Source: Planctomycetota bacterium (lineage in GTDB: Bacteria; Planctomycetota; Phycisphaerae; WQYP01). Taken from it: DNA of 64,000 bases. Below are positions 14,422-61,609 of this stretch, piece by piece. The stretch's first letter is position 1. Each line of letters starts with the position of its first letter. Position numbers and translations under genes: made by a program. The stretch covers positions 3,521 to 67,520 of the forward strand of contig JAKAEZ010000001.1 of assembly GCA_021819825.1 (NCBI GenBank), given 5' to 3'. Below the pieces are notes generated by a model. It was not told the origin of the DNA and did not search any database. It saw only the letters and a program-made list of their open reading frames with translations.

Positions 14422-14515
14422 TCACAGCGGGCTTCCGGTTGTACGGTAGCCGGGAAAATTGAATTTTGAAATGGGCACAATAGCCACTTGGAATATAATC
14501 AGGAGTATTTACGAC

Positions 14516-14752
14516 ATGATCGAAGCAATTAAAAGCGATGAAATTGTACATAAACTGGGCGGCCGATTTAAACTTTGCGCCTTGGTGCAGCACCGTCTGG
14601 CAGAACTGATCGAAGGCCAGAGACCGCTGGTAGAGCGCAACGGCCGTAGCGACATGGAAGTCGTTCTGGACGAAATTCTTCAGGGCAAAGTCAGCATTGA
14701 TTTTGAAAAAAGCAATATAACAAAGCCCGCCGAGGCTCTCGGACATAAATAA
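14516..14752 (+). CDS. rpoZ: probable DNA-directed RNA polymerase omega subunit
   Basis: KLGGRFKLCALVQHRLAELI resembles planctomycete-type omega. It sits in the conserved gmk-rpoZ-coaBC position. AGGAG lies 10 nt upstream of ATG 14516. Confidence 0.6.
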   Translation: MIEAIKSDEIVHKLGGRFKLCALVQHRLAELIEGQRPLVERNGRSDMEVVLDEILQGKVSIDFEKSNITKPAEALGHK

Positions 14753-14821
14753 GCACGTCGGTTGGCATTGCGGCAGGATGGCACCGAAATTAGCCTCACG
14801 ATTCCGGAGTGGAAACGGCTC

Positions 14822-15376
14822 ATGAACAGCGCACGGAAAAAGGTTCTGGTGTGTGTCTGTGGGGGAATCGCCGCCTACAAAGTATGCCATGTGGTCAGCC
14901 AATTGGCACAACATCAATACAAGGTGGATGTGGCCATGACGGCCCAATCGCTGAAATTTGTCGGCGCGCTGACCTTTGAAGCACTTTCAGGACATGCTGT
15001 ACATACGGATCTGTTTAATAATAGAGACAGTGCCGATCCCCAGCATATCCAACTGGCGCAAAGTGCTGATTTGATTGTGGTTGCTCCCGCGACGGCGAAC
15101 ATGATCGGAAAAATCGCGCACGGCTTGGCGGATGATCTGGTAAGTACGTTGCTGCTGGCGGCACAACCGGAAAAACTGCTGCTGGCCCCCGCAATGAATG
15201 AGCAAATGTGGAATAACCCCGCGGTGCAGGCCAATGTGGCGATGCTGCGGTCGCGGAACATTGCGATGATCGGGCCGGAGTCCGGGTGGCAAGCCTGTCG
15301 GACGATCGGCACAGGCCGCATGAGCGAGCCGGAGGTCATCGTTCAAATGGTCATGTCCCGAGTTCCGGTTACTTAA
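14822..15376 (+). CDS. coaC: phosphopantothenoylcysteine decarboxylase (stand-alone CoaC flavoprotein domain)
   Basis: GGIAAYK..APATANMIGKIAHGLADDL..APAMNEQMW..GTGRMSEPE. The ORF stops after ~185 aa with no CoaB domain. Confidence 0.8.
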   Translation: MNSARKKVLVCVCGGIAAYKVCHVVSQLAQHQYKVDVAMTAQSLKFVGALTFEALSGHAVHTDLFNNRDSADPQHIQLAQSADLIVVAPATANMIGKIAHGLADDLVSTLLLAAQPEKLLLAPAMNEQMWNNPAVQANVAMLRSRNIAMIGPESGWQACRTIGTGRMSEPEVIVQMVMSRVPVT

Positions 15377-35882: not shown

Positions 35883-36178
35883 TGGATGATCAAAGGCTCA
35901 TGTAAAAAAAGCGCCTCGGCCAGTCAGGCTTCCGGCAAGCCTGATTCATCCGTACCATATATTTTTGCCATCAAAAAGTAAACCCGTCAGCGGTACAATC
36001 CGGGAACTCATTTATTGTGCAAGGCGGTGCGGTAATATTGTCGCCGGCAACGTCAAAGATAATTTTGACACGTCAAAAATCCCGATAAGTGCATTTCTCC
36101 AAAGGAAACCTCATTTTCACATCGCCAATATTTGGCCGGGCATGCGTGACGCTATTTATTATCGGCTCAGTCTTCACT

Positions 36179-37390
36179 TCAGTTTTCTGCGCCTGCAATA
36201 AGTCCTCGGGTTCCGGAATCCGGCGAGGCGGCGGCGGCGTAGCGGTGCGTTTTGCGCATGTTTCGCGGGGTTTCATTGAAATAATTGTGGAACGAGGTAC
36301 TGAATTGCCGGGGAGAACTGTAGCCGGATTTGTGGGCCACCTGGGCAATGGGAATATCCGAGTCCAGTACAAGCTGCCGGGCTGTTTCCATTTGGATGCG
36401 CTGAATTTCCGTGGCCGGGGTACGGTTCAGCGCAGCAAGAAAATGCCGCTCCATAGTCGGTCGTGAGACGGCCAATTGATCCGCCAACCATTTGACCGAT
36501 ATGCCGCTGGGCAGGTTCTGCTGAATCAACCCCAGTGCCTCCCGCACCAGATCATCTTCAACACCGAAAATATCGGAAGACAAACGGGTAATAACCCGGA
36601 TCGGCGGAATCAGCACGGTCATGGCCTTTATTTTTTTCCCGCGCATACGCTGATAGAGCAATTCCATGGCACGCAAACCGATATTGCGGCTATCTAAAAG
36701 AATACTGGATAAATGGGGTGTGCGCAGTTGGCCGTATAAATCATCATTATCCGTTCCCAGAATGGCAATATCTTCAGGAACTCTGATTTTTAAGTTCCGG
36801 CACGCTTCAACCAGATAGGCTCCCAGCAGGTCATCACCGGCATAAATGGCGGCGGGTTTTGCGAGATGTTTCAGCCAGCGGACGACGGTGCTGGGGTACA
36901 AACCCGCGCGGTCTTCAGCCTCGGCTTCCTGCTTTCGAAAATACTGCGCTGCTGCGCCCCGTGCGGCCGCCTGGGCTATAAATCCGTCGCGTCGCGCATC
37001 CGACCAATACCGCTGTGACATGCCATAATAGACGAGCCGCCGAAATCCGCGATCAATAAAGTAATCCGCCGCCATGCGTCCGACAGCCGCATCATCGGTA
37101 ACCACCCGTGGCAGGCTGGAAGTCTCCAGTTCAGCGGAAACATCGACAGCGGGTACACCTCGAATGGCAATGGCCTCCGGAAGTTTCCAAGCCGGCGGGC
37201 AACCGGCGACGATCACGCCATGGATGTCGCCGCGAATCAGAGCAGGCAAATCCGCAGGTTCAAAATTATCGGGGAAAAAAACACGAATCTCCGGTTGGCG
37301 ACCTGCAAATTCCGCTACGCCGCGCAGGACATCCCGGTTATAAGCGACTGCCAGGTTACCCAGGAACAGCACTCTTTTATTTTTCCGCAT
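36179..37390 (-). CDS. XylR-type regulator (periplasmic-binding-protein-like sensor plus AraC HTH)
   Basis: LacI/PBP-like N-domain. C-terminus ..IAQVAHKSGYSSPRQFSTSFHNYFNETP, an AraC-type HTH. Confidence 0.85.
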   Translation of the reverse strand: MRKNKRVLFLGNLAVAYNRDVLRGVAEFAGRQPEIRVFFPDNFEPADLPALIRGDIHGVIVAGCPPAWKLPEAIAIRGVPAVDVSAELETSSLPRVVTDDAAVGRMAADYFIDRGFRRLVYYGMSQRYWSDARRDGFIAQAAARGAAAQYFRKQEAEAEDRAGLYPSTVVRWLKHLAKPAAIYAGDDLLGAYLVEACRNLKIRVPEDIAILGTDNDDLYGQLRTPHLSSILLDSRNIGLRAMELLYQRMRGKKIKAMTVLIPPIRVITRLSSDIFGVEDDLVREALGLIQQNLPSGISVKWLADQLAVSRPTMERHFLAALNRTPATEIQRIQMETARQLVLDSDIPIAQVAHKSGYSSPRQFSTSFHNYFNETPRNMRKTHRYAAAASPDSGTRGLIAGAEN

Positions 37391-37562
37391 AGGCCATCCT
37401 CCGATATATTATCGTACCATATGTGCCACAACTTTGATACAAATTCTGAATATTTTTTCCCAAAATTGCCGGTCATTGAGTCCGAGAAGTCAGCTATGCC
37501 ATTATGTAGAGTTTCGAGAACGGGCATGCCGCTCGGCTGGTCGCGCGATGACAAGATAGTAA

Positions 37563-37629
37563 GTGATACAAAATCGGAAGTTTTTTTTATTAAATTGACA
37601 TGTTTTTATTGTCGCAACCGTGCTAGACT
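37563..37629 (+). promoter_or_regulatory. copy D of shared promoter-like motif (GATACAAAATCGGAAG-T8-..AAATTGACA-N23-TAGACT)
   Basis: Aligns with copies at 42978, 58655 and 62211. Lies ~150 nt upstream of ATG 37781. Confidence 0.45.
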
Positions 37630-37780: not shown

Positions 37781-40066
37781 ATGGGGTTAAAACAAACTAA
37801 CCAGTTTGGAAAAAGTGCCCCCGAACCCGATGTGCAAGGCTCGCCATTAACCGGATTAGACTCCGTGTCATTAAATGAACCGTATTTCCGGCGAAATTGG
37901 TTGGATGGCTGTTATGGTAACTTCGCCGACGGAGCGTTAATATTCGTATCAAAAAATCGTAAATCAACAGCGCTTGTAATCGCGACATTACTAGTTGGAA
38001 TAGCCCCAAGTCTCGTCCACGCCGACATCCTTGAGTCAAAACGGGGCTTTGCCGATACGGGTGCTAATTACAATGACCTCCAGGCATCCGGTGCCGGATG
38101 GTACTACACTTGGGGGCCTGGCCCGGCGAATCCAGGCAATTTCAACGCCAACTTTTATCCAATGTTCTGGGACGCACCGAGCCAAAGCACCATTGATCAG
38201 GTCGTGGCAACCAATCCTCTTTACGTGCTGGGCTTTAACGAGCCGGATAATTCGACTCAATCCAACATGACGGTCGCGCAGGCGATTTCATCATGGAAGA
38301 TGATTTCTGCCAGCTTTGCCAATACAACAACCCAGTTGGTAAGCCCGGCAGTTGAAGACACTTCCACAGGCCATCAATGGCTTGAAAACTTCATGAGCCA
38401 GGCAAAAGCTGACAATCTCAAGGTCAATGCCGTTGCATTTCACTGGTACGATGATAGCAATCCGTTGACGCCGCAGCAGGATGCCACCAATTTCCTGAAC
38501 TCAGTTGCCTGGTACCATAACACGTTTAAATTGCCGGTGTTTATAACAGAATTTGCGGTCTACGATTGGGGTGGCGGTTACACTACCTCGCAGATGCAGA
38601 CTGGGGAACAGCAGTTTCTCAATATTGTTATACCCCAACTCAATTCGTTGAGTTATGTCGCGGGATATTCTTACTATAATTGGTTCAACGGCTTGGCTCT
38701 CTATTCCACGCAAAGCGGGATCAACGGCAACCCGGATGTTCCGACCCCATTGGGATACGCGTATAACGGCGCGGTTGGCATCGGCACCACCGCCAATATC
38801 AGTGGTGAAAACCTTGGCGAGCATGTCGCATATCTCACCGGCGGCACGCTTACCATGACTACTGGTGCTGGAACCATTAAATACATCGATGCATTGACTA
38901 ATACCAGCTATATTTCCGGCACGATCAACTGGGGCCTGGATCCGTCCTCTTCGACCAATTCGGTACGCGTGGAGCCCGGTGCGGTACTCGTTAAGTCTGG
39001 CAGCAATACGATTACGCTTAGCGGCGGTACGATCACAAACGATGGCACCATTAACGTTGCCCAAGGCGTGCTTGATATCGCCGCTCCTACAACCGGCATC
39101 GGCTCGATTCTCATTGCCGACAATGGTGGAACAAGCGGCTCAATCGCCCAACTTGAGCTTTCGGGTAATATCACCGTAAGCAATGCCATTACCATGGCAC
39201 AAGTCAGCGATCTGGCACAACCCGCAAGCATCCGAAATGTCAGTGGAACCAATACCATCAACGGCCCGTTAACCATTACCTCCGGCGGCGATCTGGTTCG
39301 CGTGCAGTCCGATTCCGGACTCCTTACTTTGAGCGGCCAGATCACCACCAATACAACCACAGCCGGCAATCTCTTTTTGCAGGGTACCGGCAATGGAGTG
39401 GTTACCGGTGCGATCTCCGATAATCCCGTTTTTGCGGCTGGACAACTCAACGTCTGGAAACAGGGTACGGGCACATGGGCTCTCACCGGTACCAATACGT
39501 ATACCGGTACAACCACTGTATCTTCCGGCACACTGCTCGCGGATGGCAGCATAACCAGCGCAACAATCATCATGACAGGAGCCGTGCTAGGTGGCAATGG
39601 TCGGATCAATGCTACCGTTAATAACGCGGGCACCATAAGCCCCGGCGATGTGGGAAACGCTGGAACGCTGACCATTACATCCTTGACCCTGGGCAATGCC
39701 AGCAGTCTGAATTTTATCCTTAATACGCCTGACTCGGCCGCCGGCATCGGGGGCAACAGTCTTCTCGCTACCACAGATTTAACACTGGGATCGGGTATCA
39801 TAGTGAACATCAGCGGAGGTTCACAATTTGGAGTCGGCATGTATCAATTAATAACCTTTGCGGATGCAACTAATAATCTTGCTGATTTAAACTCTTGGGT
39901 GGTTAACGGCCCCAGCGGATACAGGTATACCTTAAGTGATCCGTTGGGAATTATTGACTTGAATGTGACAGCGGTACCCGAACCATCGGTATCAGCGTTG
40001 CTGTTTTTGGGTGGTCTGATGCTTCTGCTGCGTAAAGCTAAGCGACGAGCAGCCGCATCACAATAA
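37781..40066 (+). CDS. GH128-like (Glyco_hydro_cc) hydrolase, autotransporter-type beta-strand repeats and PEP-CTERM anchor
   Basis: GWYYTWG..LGFNEPD..FHWY..ITEFAV catalytic-core pattern, then GTGTWALTGTNTYTGTTTVSSGTLL repeats, then VPEPSVSALLFLGGLMLLLRKAKRR. AAGGAG lies 6 nt before the ATG. Confidence 0.85.
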   Translation: MGLKQTNQFGKSAPEPDVQGSPLTGLDSVSLNEPYFRRNWLDGCYGNFADGALIFVSKNRKSTALVIATLLVGIAPSLVHADILESKRGFADTGANYNDLQASGAGWYYTWGPGPANPGNFNANFYPMFWDAPSQSTIDQVVATNPLYVLGFNEPDNSTQSNMTVAQAISSWKMISASFANTTTQLVSPAVEDTSTGHQWLENFMSQAKADNLKVNAVAFHWYDDSNPLTPQQDATNFLNSVAWYHNTFKLPVFITEFAVYDWGGGYTTSQMQTGEQQFLNIVIPQLNSLSYVAGYSYYNWFNGLALYSTQSGINGNPDVPTPLGYAYNGAVGIGTTANISGENLGEHVAYLTGGTLTMTTGAGTIKYIDALTNTSYISGTINWGLDPSSSTNSVRVEPGAVLVKSGSNTITLSGGTITNDGTINVAQGVLDIAAPTTGIGSILIADNGGTSGSIAQLELSGNITVSNAITMAQVSDLAQPASIRNVSGTNTINGPLTITSGGDLVRVQSDSGLLTLSGQITTNTTTAGNLFLQGTGNGVVTGAISDNPVFAAGQLNVWKQGTGTWALTGTNTYTGTTTVSSGTLLADGSITSATIIMTGAVLGGNGRINATVNNAGTISPGDVGNAGTLTITSLTLGNASSLNFILNTPDSAAGIGGNSLLATTDLTLGSGIIVNISGGSQFGVGMYQLITFADATNNLADLNSWVVNGPSGYRYTLSDPLGIIDLNVTAVPEPSVSALLFLGGLMLLLRKAKRRAAASQ

Positions 40067-40157
40067 TTGGTGTCAAAGTATCATGTAACTATGTGCTGGT
40101 CAGTGGTTAGATTTAATTTCATCGTGTTGTTTTCGATAATAAAAGGGTATCCATTTT

Positions 40158-40985
40158 ATGTCCATCAGAAAATTAATTGTGGTCATTGCGTTTTTCGCTT
40201 GCGTGATCGTGGCTTCTCAAGGAGATACCTCCGCGCATAGTATCAAAAAAGGTGTGGGGATGGGGCCAGGCCACAACACCAAGCTTTGGAAACAACGGTT
40301 GCACGCGCTTCATGTTCATTGGTTTTATACTTGGGGTTCACAGCGACCTGCCGCCACACCAGAGAATATCCAATTTGTACCCATGATCTGGGGTTATTAT
40401 CAAAAAAGCCTGCCGGCGGCCATGAAAGAGATTATTCGCTACCATCAGTCGGGCCTCATTCGGGCAATGCTGGGATTTAACGAACCGGATGGGAAAACAC
40501 AATCCAATATTAAAGTAGACGTTGCCCTGAAAGCATGGCCACAACTGGAAGCCGCAGGCATTCCGCTGGGAAGCCCCGCGTGCGTGCATCCAGATGATAA
40601 ATGGATGAGAGCCTTTATGCACGGTGTTGGGCAACATCATTATCGGGTTAATTTTATCTGCATCCACTGGTATGGTGGCCCCAATCCGCGCGGCTTTCTG
40701 GCAATGTTGAAACACGTTCATAACCTGTATCATCGCCCGCTCTGGATTACGGAATTTGCCGTTGGAGATTGGCACGCCAATAAAGCTCATCCCAATATAT
40801 TCTCGCCCCAAGTCATCGCCCGATTTATGAGAGCAGTTCTTCCAGCCATGAACCGTCTGTCTTACGTGCAGCGCTACGCATGGTTTCCGGCCAATAAATC
40901 CAAATTCACCGCTTTGGGAACCTCCGCTTTATTCCGGAAGAATGGCACACTTACACGACTGGGGCGTATTTACGCGGCGGATTAA
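40158..40985 (+). CDS. GH128-like (Glyco_hydro_cc) glycoside hydrolase, secreted
   Basis: Signal peptide. WFYTWG..LGFNEPD..IHWYG..WITEFAVGDW. Confidence 0.8.
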   Translation: MSIRKLIVVIAFFACVIVASQGDTSAHSIKKGVGMGPGHNTKLWKQRLHALHVHWFYTWGSQRPAATPENIQFVPMIWGYYQKSLPAAMKEIIRYHQSGLIRAMLGFNEPDGKTQSNIKVDVALKAWPQLEAAGIPLGSPACVHPDDKWMRAFMHGVGQHHYRVNFICIHWYGGPNPRGFLAMLKHVHNLYHRPLWITEFAVGDWHANKAHPNIFSPQVIARFMRAVLPAMNRLSYVQRYAWFPANKSKFTALGTSALFRKNGTLTRLGRIYAAD

Positions 40986-41070
40986 GCTTCCCACCGTCAT
41001 GGTCGCAAGGCCCGCGCGGACCCGAATCAGGAAAGTACAGTTTACAGACAATCAATGGAAAGCTCTATTT

Positions 41071-42591
41071 ATGATAACAAGATATATTCCTGTGGGTGTC
41101 TTATTTCTGATTAGTTCAGTGACGAGCGCACAAGCTGGAACTTTTTATGTTGATGCGCGGCATGGCGCGGATACCAACAATGGCATGTCGATACGCACAG
41201 CCTGGAAAACGTTGCGCCGCGTGAACCACGCACATCTTGTGCCTGGAGATCATGTTCTGTTCAGGAGCGGTAATGTGTGGCGAGGGTCACTGATACCTGA
41301 TGCGTCCGGAAGCGCGGGCCACCCTATTGTGTTTGCACGGTATGGAAAGGGACCGCTGCCGTTAATTGCGGCCGGGGGAAAAGCCAAGGATGCGGTTCGA
41401 CTTTACAACGTGCAGTATGTTGAAGTGCGCAGCTTAGCGATAACCAACCATGGGAAAACCACCGCCGTTCGCCGCGGCGTGGACGTGGTGTTGGACAATT
41501 TTGGAACCGCCCACGATATTGTTATTGAAGATTTATATATACACGACGTAAATGGTACGCCCAAACAGAAAGATGACGGAGGCATCGTTTTTCAATCCCT
41601 TGGCCGAAAGGTTCCAAGCCGTTTTGATGGCTTGTATATCAGGCGGAATATTATATGGAAAGTGGATCGCTCCGGAATTGTTGCCAGGAGTTCGAATGTT
41701 GCACGCTCGCGATGGTTTCCGAGTCTTCACGTGGTTATTTCGGATAATTTCCTCGATGATATCGGAGGAGACGGTATTGTTCCCTGGACAACTCAAGGTG
41801 CGGTTGTAAAGTGGAATATTGCAAAGCGGTGCAGCCAACGATTTCATCAATACAATGCCGGCATCTGGGAATGGAGCGCTGATGACACCTTTTTCACAAT
41901 GAACGAAGCATTCGATACCAAGAGCACACGCGACGGCGAAGGTTTTGATTGCGACTATAACTCACGCGGCACGCATTTCTATCGAAATTTCAGCCACAAT
42001 AACGATGGCGGCTTTATGCTTATCTGCACACCGATCAACCACAGTACCGCGGTAAACGCCGGCAACAGCGGGTCGGTTGTAAATGAAAATATCAGTCATG
42101 ATGACAAAGGCTTGCTGGTTAACTTAAGTAGCGCGGTGAACGTGACGGTTAAGAACAATCGATTCTATGTGGGACCGCAGTACCACGTTGACTTTCTTAC
42201 CAACAAATGGGGTGGCTGGTCCAACAATGTCTGGATCGTTGACAACCAATTTTTTATCAAAGGTGCGGGAAGCGTGACCTTTGGACATGGCGTTAAACGG
42301 ATGAGCAACGGTTCGTATCTGATTGCACCCGGTTGGGGTGGCGTTACGAACCTTCACTTTGTCGGTAATACCTATTCGGGCACGGTATTGAATTGGCCAA
42401 AACAATCGCCAATGCGTGATGCGAAGGGGCCACGGCCTGTTGACATTAACTGGTCTTCCGAACCGATGTTCAATCCGCGACATCCACTTGACTATCCGGC
42501 CTACCTGAAAGCCCATCACGCTTGGATGGTCCGTTTGTTTCAGACGGTATTTCCAAGTCCAACCGCACCGCGAAATCCACCACGGAAATAA
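41071..42591 (+). CDS. right-handed parallel beta-helix (pectate-lyase-fold) secreted protein
   Basis: Signal peptide ..SSVTSAQA, then FYVDARHGADTNNG..AWKTLRRVN..PGDHVLFRSG and repeated NH/ND-rich beta-helix turns. Confidence 0.75.
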   Translation: MITRYIPVGVLFLISSVTSAQAGTFYVDARHGADTNNGMSIRTAWKTLRRVNHAHLVPGDHVLFRSGNVWRGSLIPDASGSAGHPIVFARYGKGPLPLIAAGGKAKDAVRLYNVQYVEVRSLAITNHGKTTAVRRGVDVVLDNFGTAHDIVIEDLYIHDVNGTPKQKDDGGIVFQSLGRKVPSRFDGLYIRRNIIWKVDRSGIVARSSNVARSRWFPSLHVVISDNFLDDIGGDGIVPWTTQGAVVKWNIAKRCSQRFHQYNAGIWEWSADDTFFTMNEAFDTKSTRDGEGFDCDYNSRGTHFYRNFSHNNDGGFMLICTPINHSTAVNAGNSGSVVNENISHDDKGLLVNLSSAVNVTVKNNRFYVGPQYHVDFLTNKWGGWSNNVWIVDNQFFIKGAGSVTFGHGVKRMSNGSYLIAPGWGGVTNLHFVGNTYSGTVLNWPKQSPMRDAKGPRPVDINWSSEPMFNPRHPLDYPAYLKAHHAWMVRLFQTVFPSPTAPRNPPRK

Positions 42592-42977
42592 TCTCAGGCT
42601 CATCCTCAGTGCCAGCCGCACGCCGCGCAGATCGTTCCTGATCAATCAGCGAGCTATACGGATGAATAAAACGTGCTCTTGAGAATAATATCGTATGTGA
42701 CACCGCGCTCAAATCCATTTCAATTCTTCAGGCCGCCCGAAAGGCATGGAGTATTATAGATGCGTTACGAAACCCAAAACCACACTTCGGATAATAGCGA
42801 CTCGTTAGCCTTATATTACGCGCCATCCTGGTCCCATTACGTCCGTAAACGCAAGCGGGATCCGGTAGGCTGTATCGGTCACTATGCTGCGGCGAGGAGG
42901 TGACAAATTCAGCCTTGAAATATGCCACATTTGACCCAGTTGTCGCAATAAGTTTGGCCCAAAAGAATCCGAGCTGT

Positions 42978-43041
42978 GTTACAATTTCAGAAGTTTTTTT
43001 TAAAAAATTGGCCTATTAATTCTGTTGTTACAGACTATAAT
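42978..43041 (+). promoter_or_regulatory. copy A of shared promoter-like motif (GTTACAATTTCAGAAG-T9-..AAATTGGCCTATTAATT-..-TATAAT)
   Basis: TTGGCC 43008-43013 and TATAAT 43036-43041 (22-nt spacer). Near-identical to copy B. Confidence 0.5.
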
Positions 43042-43204
43042 TTATTACGAAGATTGCATGGTAACCACACGTCGCCGGTTGCCATGCAAGAACATATTAC
43101 CGTTTTACAACGCGGGTTTAAGCGGTGGTAGTCACAAAGTTGTATTGCTGGCCTGATTTTCAGGCAGTCCAAGTTAGACGGTTTCTTTTTTAGGAGTACG
43201 TACC

Positions 43205-44179
43205 ATGAACACCCTGTTAAGTAATCGCATGTCACACAGCCGCCGAGGAAGCGGAAAACCGGGGTTTACGCTCATTGAATTACTGGTGGTGATATCCATC
43301 ATCGCGCTGTTGATCGCGCTACTTATGCCGGCGTTGGCCAAGGCCAAAGCGGAATCACTGAGTATTGCCTGCCTTGCCAACCTGCGGTCTCTTGGCCAAT
43401 TGACCGATGAATACGCACAGTCCTATCAGGATGCGATTCCCTTTGGCACATCAACGGACACGAAGTGGCCCAATCAATGGGGTGAATTCTCCTGGGATGC
43501 TCTTTTGTTTTCATTTAAACAAGGCATCCGTCCAACGCCAAGTTGGGGGCTTACCTACAGCAACGGCAATCAATATGGATTAAATACACCCGGCATGGCA
43601 GTCGCGTACAACGCCCTGTTCGACTGCCCGGCCCAATTGATTGTTCCCCCAACTTATACTGCGCACACGTCGTATTCGGCAAATCCCAACTTTTTCACGA
43701 ATTACACCACATGGTCCAACAAGACGTATACATTCAAAATTTCCCAGATTACCGATCCGGGTCAGGCAATTGCCATCGGCGACGCCAACCAGCCAACTCC
43801 TCCCGATACTTGGGACGAGTATACGTTCGATTGGCAACAGAACTCCAACAAGGGGTATACTGGTCCAGCCAACAAGTACATGAGTTACCCGAATTACCTC
43901 GTGCCAGCCAACGGGCTGATTGGCGGCGGTACCGCCAATGAGGATACTCCAAATTGGGTAAGCGGTTACGGCCTGCGTTACCGGCATATGCAAACCGGCC
44001 CCAACAGCGGCTACGCCAATGCGGTATTCTTCGATGGTCATGCCACCAGCATTCCCATCAACAACAATATTCCGGGTGCGGCACCGGGTGGTGCTGGCAC
44101 CATTGGATCAGTTGGCCTGAGAATACTTAATATCATTAATCCGAATTTGCCCGAAAGCTATAATCAGGGCCCATGGTAG
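43205..44179 (+). CDS. prepilin-type N-terminal cleavage/methylation domain protein, DUF1559 (H-X9-DG) family, paralog 1
   Basis: G|FTLIELLVVISIIALLIALLMPAL leader and a C-terminal ..NAVFFDGHATSIP motif. Confidence 0.9.
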   Translation: MNTLLSNRMSHSRRGSGKPGFTLIELLVVISIIALLIALLMPALAKAKAESLSIACLANLRSLGQLTDEYAQSYQDAIPFGTSTDTKWPNQWGEFSWDALLFSFKQGIRPTPSWGLTYSNGNQYGLNTPGMAVAYNALFDCPAQLIVPPTYTAHTSYSANPNFFTNYTTWSNKTYTFKISQITDPGQAIAIGDANQPTPPDTWDEYTFDWQQNSNKGYTGPANKYMSYPNYLVPANGLIGGGTANEDTPNWVSGYGLRYRHMQTGPNSGYANAVFFDGHATSIPINNNIPGAAPGGAGTIGSVGLRILNIINPNLPESYNQGPW

Positions 44180-44197
44180 TTCGTACTCGGGCTTCCA

Positions 44198-44236
44198 GGT
44201 CCTGTGGCTTGAGCAAATTCATCAAGCGACAGGATC
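44198..44236 (+). terminator. conserved intergenic hairpin (terminator/attenuator-like), copy 1
   Basis: ggtCCTGTGGCTTGA-9 nt-TCAAGCGACAGGatc followed by ATTTT. One G-G mismatch. Confidence 0.4.
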
Positions 44237-44415
44237 ATTTTAGAAACGGAATCAGGAAAGGAGTGTTGCCAAAACAAGAGAACTCGCACGAAAATATTTT
44301 TCTGGCGACTTATTAAACCACAATTTATTGACGGAACTAAAATACTTAGGCTTACAGCTTTGAATGATCAGAGCGGCCAATTTCATCAGCTATTCCATAC
44401 TAAGGAGAAAGAGTT

Positions 44416-45246
44416 ATGGAACGGAAAAATCTCATCCTCACGTTAGCGGCACTTGGTACAATGGCATCAGCCAGTGGCGTGTTCGCAACCAATATCCCGA
44501 TTGTCAACCCCAATATGGATGAAATCTACATCAGTCAAGCCAATTACCAGTCGAGCCTGACGAATCCATTGAATGCCATCACCGCCACGCTAAGCGCGAC
44601 GAATGGCGGTTCAAGCGTGACGCAGAAGGGTTCTGGGGGCTTGGGAACCACCACCTTTACTGATCCGGTGACCTATTCCGATGGATCCGTCAGCTCAAGT
44701 GGCTATGTCCCGGGATGGTCTGGGAGTGGTGGTGTAGCCGCAGACCCTAGTGCGGGCAATATCCCCGCTGGAACCTACCTTCAGGGCTATTACTTTAACG
44801 CTTACCAGATTCTATCCACAGATGTCCAGCCCAACACAACGTATACCCTTACGGCAAATATCGGGACAATTTATGTTTCCAATGGCTACTGGCAAGGCGA
44901 TAATCTTGATCTCTCCTATGGTGCTTCTGTTAGCGGCACGACGTTTAATGCAGGGACGGATTTAGCCGGTTTCAATGTTAAAGGAACGCAAACGTCGGGG
45001 TCCGGTGGTTATCGCCCCGCATATCAGAGTTTCAATCAGGTGGTCTTTACCGCCACGACCGGTGCGTCAGTATCTGGACCATTGGCCATCGAGTTTGGAA
45101 ATTATTATTCAGGCTCAGGTGAGCTGTCGGCGTTCAGCGGTTTTACCCTGTCGACTTCCCCGGCGGCCGTGCCAGAGGCTCCGACGCTGGCTTTGTTGGG
45201 AATTGGGGTCTTGGCACTGCTTGGTTTAAAGCGTAAACGGGCTTAA
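44416..45246 (+). CDS. small secreted beta-sandwich (lectin/CBM-like) protein with PEP-CTERM anchor, paralog 1
   Basis: Signal peptide. YVPGWSGSGG motif. C-terminus VPEAPTLALLGIGVLALLGLKRKRA. AAGGAGA ribosome-binding site. Confidence 0.8.
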   Translation: MERKNLILTLAALGTMASASGVFATNIPIVNPNMDEIYISQANYQSSLTNPLNAITATLSATNGGSSVTQKGSGGLGTTTFTDPVTYSDGSVSSSGYVPGWSGSGGVAADPSAGNIPAGTYLQGYYFNAYQILSTDVQPNTTYTLTANIGTIYVSNGYWQGDNLDLSYGASVSGTTFNAGTDLAGFNVKGTQTSGSGGYRPAYQSFNQVVFTATTGASVSGPLAIEFGNYYSGSGELSAFSGFTLSTSPAAVPEAPTLALLGIGVLALLGLKRKRA

Positions 45247-45270
45247 CATACCTTTCGCACGCGGTTTATG

Positions 45271-45318
45271 AAGCGGGCTGTGCGGCCGTTTGGCGCAGCC
45301 CGCTTATTTTCTTTTTTT
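45271..45318 (+). terminator. strong intrinsic terminator
   Basis: 13-bp GC-rich stem AAGCGGGCTGTGC/GCGCAGCCCGCTT with a 9-nt loop, followed by ATTTTCTTTTTTT. Confidence 0.75.
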
Positions 45319-45330
45319 GGAGCATCGTGG

Positions 45331-46848
45331 ATGAAACGACGTACCTTTCTGCAAGCGGGAGCTGCCTCCGCGATTGCCGTTCGAGCGGCTAACCCAAACA
45401 GTAAGCAACGCAGGCCGAACATTCTGGTGTTTCTCACGGATGATCATGCACAATGGGCACAGCAGCCGTATGGAAATCCGGACGTGCGAACCCCCAACAT
45501 GAGTTGGCTGGCGGAACATGGCACAAAAATGACGCAGGCGTTTACGACCTGTCCGGTGTGCTCACCCGCCCGAGCTTCATTTTTCACCGGGCGCATGCCC
45601 TCGCAGCATGGCATCCAAGACTGGTTGTATGAGCCATCGCATATTACCGACAATTGCCTCAAGGGCCAGACGCTGATTTCCCAACCACTGAAAGCGGCCG
45701 GATATCGCACAGGTCTGGTGGGCAAATGGCATTGCGGAGCCACACGGTTCCCCAAGCCCGGTTTTGACTACTGGTTCAGCTACTGGGTTTGGCAATATCC
45801 GCATTTTGGACATCAGAATTTTTCAAACCAGGGTAAACTTCTGCACGAATTTGGCAATCAATCTGAGCTTCTGACGGATCGAGCCATCGAATTTCTCAAG
45901 CAGGGTCGAACCGGCGGCAAGCGCGACGAGCCTTTTTTTCTGTTCGTCAGTTATACCGATACACATTCGCCGCATATTCAAGCTCCCAAGCACTATGTGG
46001 ACTACTACAACAACCAGCCGCTAAATTATTTTAAAGTTCCACCCTTTGCTTCCTGCCATGGGCAGATTGCCAACCCGGGAGATGGCGTACCGCATTTACC
46101 ATCGGAACAACATGCCCGATTGGCGCAATACTATGCGGCGGTGAATAATATTGATCATCAGATCGGGCGGGTACTGGCCACGTTGAAAGAACAGGGAGAA
46201 TTGGATGATACCATGGTGGTATACACGGGCGACCACGGATTAAATGGCGGCCATCACGGTTTTTGGGAGAAAGGCAACGCCACCGTACCACAGAATTTTG
46301 TGGATCAATCCATACGGATATCATCGATAATATCATGGCCCAACGGCGGCGTGCGAAAGAATGTTTCCAGCGACGCAATCGTCAGCCACCCTGATTTATT
46401 CATGACCATTCTGGATGTTGCCAATGCGCATCCGGATGAGGCCACGATGGCCAAAATCAATTCGCCGGGAAAGTCATACCTGCGACAGCTTCGCGGCGAA
46501 TCGGTTCCGCACTGGCGCGACGCGATTATCTGTGAATACGGGAATGCTCGTATGATCCGCAATGATCACTACAAGCTGATCCTTCGGTATCCGTTCCATT
46601 GGGTTGAAGCCCCCAATGAGCTTTATGATCTTCAGGCGGATCCCCATGAACGGACCAATATATATAACCGTCCGGAGCATCAGCAGACCATTAAACAACT
46701 GGCCGCTCGAATCGATGCTTTTTTCAAAGTCTATACGGTGCCGGGAAATTCCGGTCTTGACTTGGAGCACCAACCGGAGCCAGACCCATACGCCCCGTGG
46801 ATTTTAATGGCCCGCCGTGACTCGCAATGGACGATCCGAGATTATTAA
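45331..46848 (+). CDS. Cys-type sulfatase with twin-arginine signal
   Basis: MKRRTFLQAGAA.. Tat motif. LTDDH..CPVCSPARASFFTGR (CxPxR formylglycine motif). GDHG. Confidence 0.9.
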   Translation: MKRRTFLQAGAASAIAVRAANPNSKQRRPNILVFLTDDHAQWAQQPYGNPDVRTPNMSWLAEHGTKMTQAFTTCPVCSPARASFFTGRMPSQHGIQDWLYEPSHITDNCLKGQTLISQPLKAAGYRTGLVGKWHCGATRFPKPGFDYWFSYWVWQYPHFGHQNFSNQGKLLHEFGNQSELLTDRAIEFLKQGRTGGKRDEPFFLFVSYTDTHSPHIQAPKHYVDYYNNQPLNYFKVPPFASCHGQIANPGDGVPHLPSEQHARLAQYYAAVNNIDHQIGRVLATLKEQGELDDTMVVYTGDHGLNGGHHGFWEKGNATVPQNFVDQSIRISSIISWPNGGVRKNVSSDAIVSHPDLFMTILDVANAHPDEATMAKINSPGKSYLRQLRGESVPHWRDAIICEYGNARMIRNDHYKLILRYPFHWVEAPNELYDLQADPHERTNIYNRPEHQQTIKQLAARIDAFFKVYTVPGNSGLDLEHQPEPDPYAPWILMARRDSQWTIRDY

Positions 46849-46940
46849 ACTTACCGCAAAGGGGCCTTGGATTTCTGCTGCGACCCGCAAATTGGGCCGC
46901 TGCTTGCTATAGGATTTTGCCTTTTGATGGAATAGCAATT

Positions 46941-46990
46941 TTTATGTTCTCAAATTGGCCATGATCGCCGCCACTGAAATACTGTATAAT
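46941..46990 (+). promoter_or_regulatory. partial fifth copy of the promoter-like motif (T-rich..CAAATTGGCC-N24-TATAAT)
   Basis: TTGGCC 46955-46960 and TATAAT 46985-46990, upstream of ATG 47034. The upstream GATACAAAA block is poorly conserved. Confidence 0.3.
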
Positions 46991-50503: not shown

Positions 50504-50509
50504 CTAGTG

Positions 50510-50531
50510 CCCTGTTCCGGCCATACCTTCA
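50510..50531. repeat. solo copy of the terminal 22-mer of the 58.2-kb inverted-repeat element
   Basis: CTAGTGCCCTGTTCCGGCCATA matches 58202-58223 at 21 of 22 positions. It lies 7 nt upstream of the anSME start codon. Confidence 0.5.
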
Positions 50532-53827: not shown

Positions 53828-55093
53828 TCAACGCCGTTCTGGGTTTTCTACCACAGTTGCATAGACCGTATCAGGCGATGCCTCACGCGGAGAAGCAAGG
53901 TGTGTGGTATACGACGACACTTGCCCCAACTGATGGCGAAATATTCCCGGTGACATCCCGGTCATGGCTTGAAATGCCAGAAGCATGCGGTTCCGATCCA
54001 TAAATCCGGCCCGTGACGATATGGCCTTGAGTGGCAAATCGGTTTCGCGCATGAGTTTCTTGGCCAACTCAACCCGCCAACGCAATATTTCCTGATGAAT
54101 ACCGTGCCCCAGATATTTTTTGAATTTTATTTCCAGCGAGCGTCGTGATGTGCCGGTGGCATTGACGATATCGGTCACGCGCAGGCGACCATTGCTATGC
54201 GAGCGGATAATTCGGATAGCCGAGACGACATCGGCATCGGATATCAGCAGCCGATCTGTAGATTCACGAACGGTGATCGCCGTTGGAGGAACCGTCAACA
54301 AGTGCCGGGTCTTGACCTGCCCTGATAACATCTGGTCCAGAAGCTTAGCGGCTTGATAGCCGATCAACTCAACATTGTAGCGTACGCTTGAAAGAGGCGG
54401 ATTGGCAAGCGTGCATACCAACTCGTTGTCGTCGGCACCCAAAACGGCAATATCATTGGGTACATGCAGATTTAGAACGCGGCATGTGGACAATACCGCC
54501 AGGGCATACTCATCATGACTGCAGAAAATGGCCAATGGCCGCTGACGACGGTCAAACCGTTTGAGCCAGGATCGTAATTTTGGAATCTCGCCGGTCCATT
54601 CAACCGGCTGGTTCTGGGAACTGGAAAAATCATGAAAAGCATTGACAAAAAGACTATCGACAGCATGGCCCTGTGCCCGAAGAACGCTAACAAAACCTTC
54701 GTGACGCTGGTCGGAAAAAAACAGATTGCCTGTGCCGACAAAGGCAAAATGCTGGTAGCCCTTCTTAAGAAAATATTTAGCCGCGGCCGCACCGACTTTT
54801 ATGTCATCAGCCCCCACCCGCCCTCCGGGAGCATGGGGTAGAAAACCACCCACATCGACCGATGGAATGTTGAGTCTCGCGATAACCTGGGCAATTTGCG
54901 GCATCCGAATCGCCCCTATGATGCCGTCGGGTCGCCGACTTTTTATTACTTGAACCGCTTTTAATTCGGGTGAAACGCCCTGCCATATCCAATGGTCAAA
55001 GCCGACAGCATACTGACGGATACCTGTAAGAATCCGCTGCGAATAACCCGGTTTAAGACGAATCAAAAGCATGATATTTCGACGGTTTAGCAT
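53828..55093 (-). CDS. XylR-type regulator (PBP-like sensor plus AraC HTH), second paralog
   Basis: Same architecture as 36179..37390. C-terminus ..LKAISSRAGFMDRNRMLLAFQAMTGMSPGIFR. Confidence 0.85.
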   Translation of the reverse strand: MLNRRNIMLLIRLKPGYSQRILTGIRQYAVGFDHWIWQGVSPELKAVQVIKSRRPDGIIGAIRMPQIAQVIARLNIPSVDVGGFLPHAPGGRVGADDIKVGAAAAKYFLKKGYQHFAFVGTGNLFFSDQRHEGFVSVLRAQGHAVDSLFVNAFHDFSSSQNQPVEWTGEIPKLRSWLKRFDRRQRPLAIFCSHDEYALAVLSTCRVLNLHVPNDIAVLGADDNELVCTLANPPLSSVRYNVELIGYQAAKLLDQMLSGQVKTRHLLTVPPTAITVRESTDRLLISDADVVSAIRIIRSHSNGRLRVTDIVNATGTSRRSLEIKFKKYLGHGIHQEILRWRVELAKKLMRETDLPLKAISSRAGFMDRNRMLLAFQAMTGMSPGIFRHQLGQVSSYTTHLASPREASPDTVYATVVENPERR

Positions 55094-55643
55094 AACAATA
55101 TTGAATCTCACCCGGCCATAATGCAGGCTTTAGTTTTCTCCGGCGACGCCTGCGCGCATTTTTGCGTCTTGCCACCCGTAACGCTTCATTGACTATAACG
55201 CTCATGGCATTATTCACCAAGGCAAAATAATGCAACAGAATCTGTGTATTATGGGTGTATAGCGTCCTGATGAGGGTGAAAATTTCCGGAAAAACCGCAA
55301 TAAATATGGACAAGGTCAATGTACGGGTGGATCTCCGGCCTGGAAAATGGCTTGCGCGAAATGTCGCACTTTCTACGTCAATCGATGTTGTGTATAGGTT
55401 ATAATACTGTATGCAGCCGTAGGTCAGGGCGTGAAAGCAGAGGTTTTTTAGGCGCTATAAAATGGGGCGCATCGGAATTACTTTCTGAACACGCCACTTT
55501 TTCGACATCGTGCCTTGCGGCATTTTTTCTCCGTTAAGGGAGTACTGTTTGTTGTTCAAAATTGCTCATGGCACCGATCAATCAGGCAGTACCTTCTTAT
55601 TCTCATTCACTTACATCAAGGCGTTTACAGGCAGGAGCAATAA

Positions 55644-58205: not shown

Positions 58206-58472
58206 TGCCCTGTTCCAGCCATAATTACGGGTTGATTGGTCTTAATCCGGCCAGATGCAAGGAGTCGGCGGCGAGAACCGGGTTCGTAAACCCCTTGAGC
58301 CGACGCGACGCCGCAGATGGCCGGTTTAAGGCCAACCCTTCGGGCGGGGGCCAAGGGGCCGCGGGCTTTGTCGCTCGTCGTCAACGTATGCATCCATACG
58401 CAATCCTCCTCGCTTCGCGCCCACAACCCCTTGGCCCTCCGTCAACCCGTAATTAAGACCGGAACAGGGCGA
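58206..58472. repeat. ~265-nt structured element bounded by 29-nt imperfect inverted repeats (MITE-like element or unknown ncRNA)
   Basis: 58207-58235 pairs with 58442-58470 at 26 of 29 positions. Internal helices include 58241-52/58319-30, 58348-58/58427-37 and hairpin CGTATG-catc-CATACG. TAG lies on both flanks. Confidence 0.5.
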
Positions 58473-58654
58473 TAGTTTTCCAAAAAGTCAGGAAAAACAT
58501 GGGGTTCAGGGAAGATCAAGCCGGTGCTAAGCCATGCTGTAAAATGAGGATCGCACCCGCAACAACTGATAGAATCAGGTATCTCCGTGCGGCGAGCGTT
58601 GTGTGACATCAGCTCTTTTTAAGAAAAATCGTATCAAAAGTTGCCGGATCAAGC

Positions 58655-58720
58655 GCGATACAAAATCAGAAGTTTTTGTGCACAAATTGGCCTATTTTTA
58701 TTTCCGGCAATGGGCTAAAT
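58655..58720 (+). promoter_or_regulatory. copy C of shared promoter-like motif (GATACAAAATCAGAAG..ACAAATTGGCCTATT..-CTAAAT)
   Basis: TTGGCC 58687-58692 and CTAAAT 58715-58720 (22-nt spacer). Upstream of ATG 58862. Confidence 0.45.
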
Positions 58721-58861
58721 TTCCCTTTGGAACCTTAAAATGGCGTATGAGCGCTGGTGCCGGGACAATCGCAGGATGTTTGGATATTGTCTGGAGCGAA
58801 GAGTTAGACCGGCGGTGCACCGCTAGCCTTAATGGGCCGCCGACTTAGATGAATTGAGGAA

Positions 58862-61609
58862 ATGATGGATGTAGTCATGCCGAGAGTTGCGTCCAAGAGT
58901 TCTAAGGCTAGGTTAGCCATGTGGTCAGCGCGCCGCATGCTGGTAATGGCCGCTTTAGCGGCCTGCTGGATTGGTGTTGCGCCGACCCAAGTTTCGGCCG
59001 ACCCTCCCGTACCCGGCTATCAGTTGCTATGGTCCAGCCAATTTAACGGCAATTCGTTGAATCCGCTGAAGTGGAATTTTGGGCAACCGTGGGGCAGCAA
59101 TGTTCCGCCAAGCAGCAATAGTATTGGCGAGCCGGGCAATGTTACCGTAGCCAACAACACACTGAATCTTACCGCTCAGAATCAGAGCACGGATGGTTAT
59201 GGATATACCACAGGCTTGGTGAATACCAGCGGCCTGCTGAACTTTACGTATGGTTACGTCGAAGCAAAAATTCAAATTCCGTACACGCTGGGTACTTGGC
59301 CGGCATTCTGGATGCTGCAAAATGGATGGCCTCCGGAAATTGATGTCATGGAAGCACCGCAGCAAACATACAACAACCAGGCGGGATCCGTTGGCACATC
59401 CTATGATTATTACGCCACGTACCACTACACCAATTCCAGCGGCAATGCCGCCTCCGCCGGAACGGGCATGTACTATACCGGCGTCAACGAAGCTACGAGC
59501 TTTAACGATTACGGCATGATGTGGACACCCAATGCGATCAGCTTTTACTTCAACGGCAATCTGGTTGATACCATCAACAGTTCTCAGGCCAATATCGCGC
59601 AAAGCCAAAACATGTACCTGCTTCTGGACCTGGCGATCGGAGGCTGGCCCGGCAACCCACCTTCCTGGGCATCCTTTCCCACGACCATGCAGGTGCAGGA
59701 TGTGAATGTTTGGCAATTGCCATCCTCAAGTGCGATGACCATGAATTTCAAGGCATCAGGCTCGGTGGCTGCGTGGAATAATGCCTCATCCTGGCAAAAC
59801 GGCAATGTGCCCACGCTGGGTTCTCAAACGGCGGTGTTTGGCCAGAGCAGCGCCAGCGACACCAACGTGCAATGGTCTAACTTTCAGACCGTTGGCAACC
59901 TGACTTTTAACGGCGGCACAACCAATTATACACTGGGACAGGTTAATACTTCCGGATTAATGCTCGCCAACGATACGGGGACAGCCAACATCACCGCCAA
60001 TGCGTATAATGGACACAGCGATTCAGTGACCCTGGCCTCAGAGTTGGAGCTATACAACAACACCAATATTGTCAATAACATGTCCAACTCCATTCAAATA
60101 TATGGCAATATCTATGGTGAAGGGGCATTAGGCGTACAAAATGGCGGCGTTGATATTCACAGCGCGATTACCAACACGGGCGGGATAAGCGTTGACAATA
60201 ATGGCAGTATAATGCTTAGCGATGGCAGCATTAATTCTCCCACCAATGATGTCAATTTGAGCACCGCACCCGGAAGCAATGCAAGCATGACCGTGCTCGG
60301 GGCCGCTTCATCAGTGAATGCCCGTGTTATTAGAGTCGGTGGGTGGAATGGTGGCCCCGCGACTTTCACGCAAGACGGCGGAACTGTTGCGGCGCAGACC
60401 TGGTTTGTCATTGGGCAATCCGGAGCGGCCACGGGGCAAGCTACTATCAATGGAGGGACTCTGGTGGTGAGGGCGGGCGGCGGTGCCAGTGGAGACTTGG
60501 AATTAGGTGTATTTAACTCTGCCTCGGGCACATTGAACATCAATGGAACCGGAATCGTTGCGTTACTGAATAATTCCAATATTGTCTTGGGTTCACAGGG
60601 CACCAGCGGCAACGGCACGGTTAATCAAAATGCCGGGAGCGTTGGATTTTACTCCGACAACGGCTCAACCGCCGGAGGAACGGGCGCTGTCATTCTTGGC
60701 CGTAACGAGTCTACCGGTGTTTACACCTACAACCTTAACGGCGGCACTCTTAAAACCCCGCAAATTGAAAGTTCCAGCGGCACCTCCAATTTCAATTTTA
60801 ACGGCGGTACTTTGGCAGCTGCCGGAAACAACGCGGAGTTCATGCAGGGGCTTTCCACAGCTTCCATTGAAACGCATGGCGGCACAATCAATCCCAATGG
60901 ATTTCATATCACCATCGGACAAAACATTTCCGGAAGCGGAGCATTAACCGTCACGGGCGGCGGCACACTGACACTTTCAGGCAATAACACGTATTCCGGC
61001 GGCACCACCATTTTGGGAGCCAGTCTGCTGGCGGCAAACACAACTGGCTCCGCCACCGGCTCCGGCACAATCACGATCGGTGCCGGCGGGATGCTTGGTG
61101 GCACCGGGGCCATTAGCGGTCCGGTTTCCACTCTCGGCGGTGGCATGCTGTCCCCCGGTGCCGCTGATCCGGGCGGCACGCTGACGATTGCCAATACGCT
61201 GACTATCGGGGATGGAACAAACCTGCAATATTATTTTCCCGCACCTTCCAGCGGAAGCACTTCCAACAGCCTGATTACAGTAGTCGGCACGTCGGGCAGC
61301 AATGGCAATCTGACCTTGGGCAAGGATGTTACAGTCTCACTGCAAGCCGGGAGCACACTTGCCGCTGGCACCTATCACCTGATTTCCTACACTGGCCAGT
61401 TGGATAATTTAAGCGACAATTTTAGCGGCTGGACGCTTTCCGGATTTAATTTACCGGGAATGACCTATAACTTCAGCACACAAAACACCGCCAACACCGT
61501 CGATTTAGTGGTTTCCGCTGTGCCAATCCCTGAACCTGCACCACTGCTGCTATTTGGCTTAGGCGCGTTGGCACTGGTGGCAGTTCGAGGCAGACGAAGG
61601 TCTCAGTAA
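58862..61609 (+). CDS. GH16 glycoside hydrolase, autotransporter-type beta-strand repeats and PEP-CTERM anchor
   Basis: WPAFWML..PPEIDVMEA (ExDxxE GH16 catalytic motif), GGGTLTLSGNNTYSGGTTI repeats, and VPIPEPAPLLLFGLGALALVAVRGRRRS. Confidence 0.85.
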   Translation: MMDVVMPRVASKSSKARLAMWSARRMLVMAALAACWIGVAPTQVSADPPVPGYQLLWSSQFNGNSLNPLKWNFGQPWGSNVPPSSNSIGEPGNVTVANNTLNLTAQNQSTDGYGYTTGLVNTSGLLNFTYGYVEAKIQIPYTLGTWPAFWMLQNGWPPEIDVMEAPQQTYNNQAGSVGTSYDYYATYHYTNSSGNAASAGTGMYYTGVNEATSFNDYGMMWTPNAISFYFNGNLVDTINSSQANIAQSQNMYLLLDLAIGGWPGNPPSWASFPTTMQVQDVNVWQLPSSSAMTMNFKASGSVAAWNNASSWQNGNVPTLGSQTAVFGQSSASDTNVQWSNFQTVGNLTFNGGTTNYTLGQVNTSGLMLANDTGTANITANAYNGHSDSVTLASELELYNNTNIVNNMSNSIQIYGNIYGEGALGVQNGGVDIHSAITNTGGISVDNNGSIMLSDGSINSPTNDVNLSTAPGSNASMTVLGAASSVNARVIRVGGWNGGPATFTQDGGTVAAQTWFVIGQSGAATGQATINGGTLVVRAGGGASGDLELGVFNSASGTLNINGTGIVALLNNSNIVLGSQGTSGNGTVNQNAGSVGFYSDNGSTAGGTGAVILGRNESTGVYTYNLNGGTLKTPQIESSSGTSNFNFNGGTLAAAGNNAEFMQGLSTASIETHGGTINPNGFHITIGQNISGSGALTVTGGGTLTLSGNNTYSGGTTILGASLLAANTTGSATGSGTITIGAGGMLGGTGAISGPVSTLGGGMLSPGAADPGGTLTIANTLTIGDGTNLQYYFPAPSSGSTSNSLITVVGTSGSNGNLTLGKDVTVSLQAGSTLAAGTYHLISYTGQLDNLSDNFSGWTLSGFNLPGMTYNFSTQNTANTVDLVVSAVPIPEPAPLLLFGLGALALVAVRGRRRSQ

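Follow-up and report, generated by a model that had tools for sequence, protein, structure and literature searches.

The window, i.e., the whole 64-kb stretch of DNA that was analysed, belongs to a MAG found in mine-drainage and sediment metagenomes, and its nearest relatives are Phycisphaerae/Planctomycetota MAGs. The part between 1 and 31 kb carries housekeeping genes (PGK, TIM, DAHP synthase, AlaRS, guanylate kinase and argininosuccinate lyase), followed at 31–64 kb by a glycan-utilisation region that contains GH128 enzymes, one GH16, one GH2, sulfatases, an SSF transporter, two XylR-like regulators, PEP-CTERM/PATR proteins and two prepilin-type N-methyl proteins, the latter encoded at 43205 and 62441 and having 88% mutual identity (Table 1). 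The original prediction, made from the sequence alone, had described five copies of a promoter-like module upstream of genes for exported proteins. Pfam confirmed its labels for the GH128 and GH16-PEP-CTERM genes; the Pfam family DUF1559, which it had assigned to the two prepilin-like proteins, was without match in either of them, and the 640-aa protein at 47034, labelled TGase/CBM, has no Pfam match. An Rfam search of the window returned zero family matches.

Three further features of the window were recorded. Just upstream of the alanyl-tRNA synthetase ORF, 338 nt situated between called long ORFs (14948–15285) are coding-like; overlapping ORFs in this area occupy 14762–15376 (+) and 14402–14947 (-), and the segment may represent a mis-called start or a frameshifted gene. 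Perfect or near-perfect intergenic palindromes at 9151–9182, 35922–35946 and 61869–61890 (GAAATTTGTTGGCCGAAAAATTTCGACCAACA, CAGGCTTCCGGCAAGCCTG and CGCTGATAAATCTTTTTCAGCG) may serve as operators or terminators. An element of ~275 nt (58206–58480), situated immediately behind the stop codon of GH2, has terminal inverted repeats of ~30 nt (TGCCCTGTTCCAGCCATAATTACGGGTTGA / TCAACCCGTAATTAAGACCGGAACAGGGCG) and a very strong DNA fold (-81.5 kcal/mol, z = -8.35). Its end motif also occurs solo at 50504–50530, and a related locus has a counterpart at L023:64–77. Two + strand copies of this end motif bracket a 7.7-kb block consisting of the SSF transporter, a sulfatase, XylR2 and GH2; the syntenic locus L028 lacks this block and has the radical-SAM gene directly beside GH16. 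The element could be MITE-like or the recombination scar of an inserted cassette.

Table 1. Regulators, module copies and downstream genes in the window
Feature	Position	Strand	Description
XylR1	36179–37390	-	Peripla_BP_3 (LacI/GalR-type ligand-binding) and C-terminal AraC-type double HTH (Pfam HTH_18 + HTH_AraC)
Extra copy	37435–37475	+	TGATACAAATTCTGAAT-ATTTTTTC-CCAAAATTGCCGG; full-length, weaker, 23 bits (PWM)
Copy 1, block	37564–37604	+	TGATACAAAATCGGAAG-T8-ATTAAATTGACATG; predicted span about -72 to -32; precedes GH128-PATR
Copy 1, -10-like hexamer	37624–37629	+	TAGACT, preceded by TGC (extended -10-like); offset 60 from block start
Target group 1	37781–42591	+	GH128 (PF11790) + PATR 37781–40066; GH128 40158–40985; beta-helix protein 40942–42591
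Copy 2, block	42977–43017	+	upstream of prepilin-like 43205
Copy 2, -10 hexamer	43036–43041	+	TATAAT, offset 59
Target group 2	43205–46848	+	prepilin-like 43205–44179; PEP-CTERM protein 44416–45246; sulfatase 45268–46848
Degenerate copy	46924–46990	+	upstream of the 640-aa gene at 47034
XylR2	53828–55111		second XylR-like gene
Copy 3, block	58656–58696	+	upstream of GH16-PATR-PEP-CTERM gene
Copy 3, -10-like hexamer	58716–58721	+	TAAATT, offset 60
GH16 + PATR + PEP-CTERM gene	58862–61609	+	downstream of copy 3
Copy 4, block	62212–62252	+	upstream of prepilin-like paralog
Copy 4, -10 hexamer	62271–62276	+	TATAAT, offset 59
Second prepilin-like gene	62441–63415	+	downstream of copy 4

Our analysis revealed six copies of the module in the window, i.e., four strong copies, one degenerate copy and one extra copy, each intergenic, on the + strand and oriented toward the + strand gene downstream. 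The five copies listed in the original prediction were all present at their coordinates and aligned readily, while the sixth, at 37435–37475, had been missed and was recovered by scanning with a PWM built from the four strong copies. These four score 61–65 bits and the background scores ≤5 bits; the scan found the module absent from the housekeeping part (from 1 to ~31–37 kb), and within the window it is restricted to the glycan-utilisation part. The pattern TACAAWWWCRGAASTTTT had four exact matches in the window and six with ≤3 mismatches, with an expectation of 0.71 ± 0.92 in dinucleotide-preserving shuffles, none of which (0/100) reached six. When the 18 intergenic regions of the window longer than about 60 nt were compared all-against-all, the module was the only motif common to more than three of them. 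The -10-like hexamers of the window copies stand 44–165 nt from the start codon, and the copy-to-gene distances of the original prediction hold.

The copies are not equivalent. The extra copy has no -10 hexamer at offset 59/60. It stands between the XylR1 gene, whose divergent start codon is 45 nt away, and copy 1, which follows 129 nt downstream, and is a candidate autoregulatory or looping site. In the degenerate copy, the distal block has decayed (TGATGGAATAGCA-ATTTTTATGTT) by an indel and mismatches, while the proximal block CTCAAATTGGCC and a TATAAT (46985–46990, spacing 24) are kept, and this copy may not be functional. The similarity of the copies at 42977 and 62212 is owed partly to recent gene duplication.

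The 5' UTRs of the prepilin-like genes are 160–190 nt long and contain a conserved hairpin about 25–60 nt past the -10 (CATGGTAACC-N10-GGTTGCCATG), located at 43057–43088 and 62294–62323 in the window and found also in L001, L003, L023, L026 and L035. Three of its pairs change on both sides among seven sequences. A second small hairpin (CTGATCTGATGWTCAG) is situated about 45 nt before the RBS. The conserved UTR hairpin has no Rfam match and may be a post-transcriptional control element. Three metatranscriptome runs of the same study had no reads over the promoters, and the only signal consisted of cross-matches to the conserved N-terminus of prepilin paralogs. Metatranscriptome contigs of that study match conserved prepilin-like parts (43546–43728) with 90–95% identity and an assembler word depth of up to about 370, which suggests that prepilin-like paralogs or orthologs are highly expressed in that community.

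Anatomy of the module and its putative core promoter

Together, the window and 10 related loci (designated by L numbers) provided 21 non-redundant copies, all of them intergenic and co-directional with the next gene. With offset zero set at the T of TGATAC, the distal half (TGATACAAAATCAGAAG followed by T8) is almost invariant across copies, and the near-invariant columns are G1, T3–A7 (GATACAA), C11, G13–A15, the T-tract at 17–24, A28, T32, C35 and T37, as compared to about 0–0.5 bit elsewhere, with about 0 bit in the flanks and about 0.1–0.5 bit in the spacer columns. Read from the alignment, this column conservation amounts to a phylogenetic footprint, taken from genomes in which orthologous proteins have just 60–88% identity.

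Despite the unconserved sequence of the spacer, a TAnnnT hexamer occurs at offset 59 or 60 in 19 of the 21 copies, 18–19 nt from the end of the block. No other offset exceeds 7/21, with offset 60 itself reaching 7 and offset 61 reaching 6 through overlap. The hexamer is missing from window:37435 and L028:2638, which are precisely the two upstream tandem copies.

A canonical sigma-70 promoter has a -35 element TTGACA and a -10 element TATAAT separated by 17 ± 1 nt. In the module, the TTGGCC/TTGACC hexamer lies 22–24 nt from the -10, just as the original prediction had measured for TTGGCC/TTGACA; its conclusion that no canonical pair is present was borne out by a consensus sigma-70 scan at the modules, which found no -35/-10 pair and no -35 at 16–18 nt upstream of the -10, and a canonical sigma-70 promoter was rejected on this spacing. 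In distant relatives, TTGACC gives way to TGATAA (L029:9766), GTTACA (L036:9951) or ATTACC (L038), yet the T-tract and the -10 remain 34 nt apart; thus, TTGGCC/TTGACC is no true -35. Setting the hexamer at -12 to -7 of the inferred start places the block at about -71 to -31, so that it would cover this part of a sigma-70-type promoter that has no canonical -35.

Of the direct-repeat half-sites that an AraC-type dimer would be expected to bind, about two helical turns apart, the block gives only weak signs. The sequence (T/C)ACAAA(A/T)T recurs at 21–22 nt in some copies, e.g., in L003, and the self-similarity of the profile has a broad peak at shifts of 20–24 that is confounded by the A/T tracts. 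Most copies also display a short palindrome, TGA-N7-TCA.

The candidate regulator XylR1 and copies in related genomes

XylR1 is transcribed divergently from copy 1 and the GH128 gene, and its best solved-structure match is E. coli XylR (4FE4), with residues 3–381 matching residues 4–386 (E = 2e-37). To find copies elsewhere, public collections were scanned with the pattern TACAAWWWCNGAANNTTTTN{3,9}AAATTGNC. Among species-representative genomes this yielded 10 matches, of which only those in L001 (Phycisphaerae MAG) and L003 (Planctomycetota MAG) are true copies; both have a downstream TATACT/TATAAT, and L003 has a prepilin-like gene. The other eight genome matches look like chance, and 12 metagenome contig matches were attributed to chance, all coming from AT-rich or unrelated contigs in which the remainder of the module is missing. 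Further loci, fetched via homologs of the prepilin-like and XylR-like proteins, were then scanned. In total, Phycisphaerae/Planctomycetota relatives contribute 16 non-redundant copies.

GH128 follows the module in L026, L029 and L036, with target group 1 being syntenic in L026 (module copy at L026:4245). GH16-PATR follows it in L028 and L035, where L028:3039 and L035:1251 are orthologs of copy 3, and a prepilin-like gene, often with a sulfatase next, follows it in L003, L023, L026, L028, L029, L035 and L036. Genes without assigned function are found downstream at L026:18992 and L038:5893.

In four of the related loci, the module adjoins XylR1 orthologs with 65–88% identity. L036, L038 and L043 had been retrieved through XylR1 homologs, independently of the motif, and L029 through its prepilin-like homolog. 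In L036 (ortholog with 66% identity), the module lies 50 nt from the start codon, facing GH128, and a second copy precedes a prepilin-like/sulfatase pair; in L029 (74%), it lies 47 nt from the start codon. In L038 (65%), gene order differs and the module is found 132 nt past the stop codon. In L043 (88%), where synteny is broken, the distal block still stands 103 nt upstream of the regulator. Counterparts of the regulator-proximal copy at 37435 exist in L029, L036 and L043. In L042, which encodes a 54% ortholog, the geometry and the proximal part are kept and the GATACAA box is replaced. No module 1, as we designate the module described here, was detected in L040, whose XylR-like protein is 48% identical, and no obvious motif is common to the two divergent intergenic regions of that locus. 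L023, L026, L028, L035, L001 and L003 carry the module with no XylR1 gene within the 4–20 kb fetched. Conserved xylR1-GH128 synteny accounts in part for finding the module next to the regulator.

The original prediction had named both XylR/AraC regulators of the window as candidate binders. The presence of the module beside its orthologs favours XylR1; the same cannot be said of XylR2, which is only 26% identical to XylR1 and whose upstream region (55112–55643) has no motif common to other intergenic regions of the window.

XylR-like paralogs in relatives are accompanied by modules of their own. A paralog in L033, 35% identical to XylR1, is found in the same assembly as an L029-type locus, which bears module 1, and is flanked by two copies of GTTATAAAAAAGCAAA...TTGTGA-N16-TAnAnT. 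The module shared by these two sites (8143–8215 and 9703–9775) reads GTTATAAAAAAGCAAAnAnATTTTTnAAAAnAAnTATTGTGA-N16-TAnAnT; its distal box resembles that of module 1 (ATAnAAAAnCAnA), and its -35 and -10 are canonically spaced. Since the canonical 16-nt spacing is present here, the odd spacing of module 1 belongs to the module and not to the polymerase of the lineage. In L043, direct repeats with 21-bp spacing (CGCAAAAAnACAC), common to two prepilin-like promoters, flank a third paralog. The two prepilin-like genes of L043 have a common upstream region of ~200 nt (at 2790–3269 and 7685–7943, minus strand) containing 21-bp-spaced CGCAAAAA(G)ACAC repeats followed by TTGACC/TTGATC, and one of these regions is divergent from the third XylR-like paralog (3270–4337).

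Proposed mechanism and alternative readings

Based on the sequences and their arrangement, we consider it probable that the module is the operator of a XylR/AraC-type activator whose small regulon would take in genes for GH128, GH16, prepilin-like proteins and sulfatases, one copy being upstream of the regulator itself. The operator-plus-promoter reading of the original prediction gains support from the hexamer fixed at 59–60 nt in 19 of 21 copies, from the missing -35 at 16–18 nt, from confinement to the glycan-utilisation region and from co-location with XylR1. We infer the binder, the activation step, the transcription start and the effector from the observed sequence conservation, fixed geometry, orientation, gene context and co-location with regulator orthologs. 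Each copy would be an activator-dependent promoter of sigma-70 type, composed of a TAnAnT -10 and an A/T-rich operator of ~41 bp that replaces a usable -35; the operator would consist of TGATACAAAATCAGAAG, T8 and then CACAAATTGACCTA, extending from roughly -71 to -31. XylR1 most likely binds this operator. Once loaded with a glycan-derived effector, XylR1 would occupy the DNA beside and over the -35 region and bring in RNA polymerase, as class-II activators of the AraC/XylS/XylR type do. The genes switched on would be the GH128 and GH16 enzymes of beta-glucanase type with PATR/PEP-CTERM anchors and the operons led by prepilin-like genes and carrying sulfatases, with an MFS transporter in relatives. 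The copy at 37435 would probably serve autoregulation and/or allow one regulator dimer to hold two sites together, in the way that E. coli XylR joins two operators by looping.

An unlikely alternative, although the best placed of those considered, is a class-I arrangement, in which only the distal box (TGA-N7-TCA within TGATACAAAATCA, centre near -65) is bound by a regulator, not necessarily XylR1, and the T8/A-rich segment (-54 to -41) acts as an UP element for alpha-CTD. UP elements are A/T-rich, lie at -40 to -60, act via alpha-CTD and are found at strong promoters whatever the regulon. The distal 25 nt are conserved far above the proximal block, L043 retains the distal part only, the T-tract and the A-rich segment occupy the usual UP-element position, and the TGA-N7-TCA palindrome is present in most copies. 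However, C35, T37 and T32 of the proximal block are also near-invariant, the T8/A block is missing from the housekeeping promoters of the window, the arms of the palindrome have only 3 bp, and the paralog-specific modules beside XylR-like paralogs point to the XylR-like family.

Even less probable, in our view, is a promoter for an ECF-type sigma factor, in which CAGAAG/C followed by the T-tract would be the -35, the -10 would lie in TTGACC ~16 nt on, and TAnAnT would belong to a separate second promoter. ECF promoters have an AAC-containing -35 and a -10 of CGT/GTC type about 16–17 nt apart, with the start about 7 nt later. GAAC/GAAG with the T-run does resemble ECF -35 elements, e.g., GGAACTT, the spacing to TGACC is about 16 nt, and sigma-70-family genes are present in L028, L038 and L043. 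Nevertheless, only a minority of copies have the AAC core (GAAG or GAAT in most), GATACAA, the most conserved box, is upstream of the supposed -35, and no sigma gene is a consistent neighbour. This reading is disfavoured because the AAC core is rare and because the putative -10, TTGACC, decays in relatives while TAnAnT, 22–24 nt further, stays fixed in 19 of 21 copies; the non-canonical sigma factor that the original prediction had offered as an alternative is not favoured.

A generic strong-promoter cassette or small mobile repeat, spread by gene duplications without a dedicated regulator, is very improbable: the copies at 42977 and 62212 do belong to a duplicated gene with a common 5' UTR and the prepilin-like genes form a large paralogous family, but the block precedes unrelated genes (GH128, GH16, prepilin-like and the gene without Pfam match), similarity breaks off abruptly at the edges of the block and returns only at the -10, neither terminal repeats nor target duplications are present, the copies are strict in orientation and in distance to the gene, housekeeping promoters lack the block, and the scan of public collections found true copies only in two related Planctomycetota MAGs. 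A mobile or duplicated cassette accounts for the 42977/62212 pair only.

Four other candidates were rejected. Sigma-54 promoters have an invariant GG at -24 and GC at -12 (TGGCAC-N5-TTGC); here, the GG of TTGGCC becomes GA in most relatives (TTGACC) and no TTGC is found 10 nt downstream. There is no G+C stem for a terminator or hairpin and there are no terminal repeats for a MITE, and a CRP-like TGTGA-N6-TCACA is at variance with the N7 spacing and the unconserved leading TG.

To our knowledge, the promoters and regulons of Phycisphaerae and other uncultured Planctomycetota are almost uncharted, and our literature search found no paper on them. The XylR1 module offers a concrete candidate operator-regulator pair and a picture of an activator-dependent promoter in this lineage. 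The candidate regulon links prepilin-like proteins and sulfatases to hydrolases of beta-glucan type, and the PWM could be used for annotating glycan-utilisation units in related MAGs; the main value is a first handle on how Phycisphaerae control the transcription of their glycan-utilisation genes and on what the associated prepilin-like genes do. More tentatively, it is possible that one XylR-type sugar sensor co-regulates secreted or anchored beta-glucanases (GH128 and GH16), sulfatases and members of the prepilin-like family (DUF1559/H-X9-DG-like), which is greatly expanded in Planctomycetota, and that XylR-like paralogs do likewise, each with its own operator and its own operon led by a prepilin-like gene (modules 1, 2 and 3). 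If true, the prepilin-like proteins would be dedicated parts of substrate-specific units for glycan capture or uptake, and such units would be the Phycisphaerae counterpart of the PULs of Bacteroidetes, with XylR-like regulators as switches.

Comparison with known systems

The closest parallel is E. coli XylR, which acts at the IA and IF sites of xylAB and xylFGH. XylR1 shares its combination of a LacI/GalR-like sugar domain and an AraC-type DNA-binding domain. The operators of E. coli XylR are ~37 bp long, with two direct repeats beside the -35; its promoters have a poor -35/-10, and one dimer bridges two operators, looping the DNA (PMC3561964). The two systems further agree in an operator, putative here, of ~37–41 bp that is A/T-rich and immediately precedes or overlaps the -35, in weak core elements, in a regulator gene located beside its targets, and in two operators close enough (129 nt apart here) that one dimer could bridge them. 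In contrast, when compared by eye on both strands, the module is unlike the gaAa-a-a-AAT consensus (PMC3561964). Lack of a consensus match, as expected at about 25–30% protein identity, means that the module is not an ortholog of the E. coli XylR site. In addition, a direct repeat is only weakly detectable in the module, the predicted target genes encode extracellular glycoside hydrolases, prepilin-like proteins and sulfatases, in place of xylose catabolism and transport as in E. coli, the host phylum is Planctomycetota, and binding here is predicted from sequence.

Class-II sites of the AraC/XylS/RhaS type (araBAD I1-I2, Pm and rhaBAD) are similar in that a site at about -70 to -35 replaces a good -35 and in that a divergently transcribed regulator has a site in its own upstream region; the module of the L043 paralog, with its 21-bp-spaced A-rich repeats, resembles them as well. 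The ligand domain differs, being of periplasmic-binding-protein type in XylR1 and of cupin type in AraC. UP elements of the rrnB P1 type share the A/T-tract in -40 to -60, a likeness that fits the T8/A-rich part only; unlike them, the module has invariant G/C positions (GATAC, C11, G13 and C35), reaches -71 and is limited to one functional gene set, with other modules beside other regulator paralogs.

Activation from an AraC/XylR-type site that borders a weak core promoter is a textbook mechanism. Since the regulator architecture, the size and position of the operator, its A/T richness, the weak core and the paired sites all agree, the module would work like a class-II site of the XylR/AraC type. 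It would be a conventional kind of gene switch, and not an ortholog of the E. coli XylR system.
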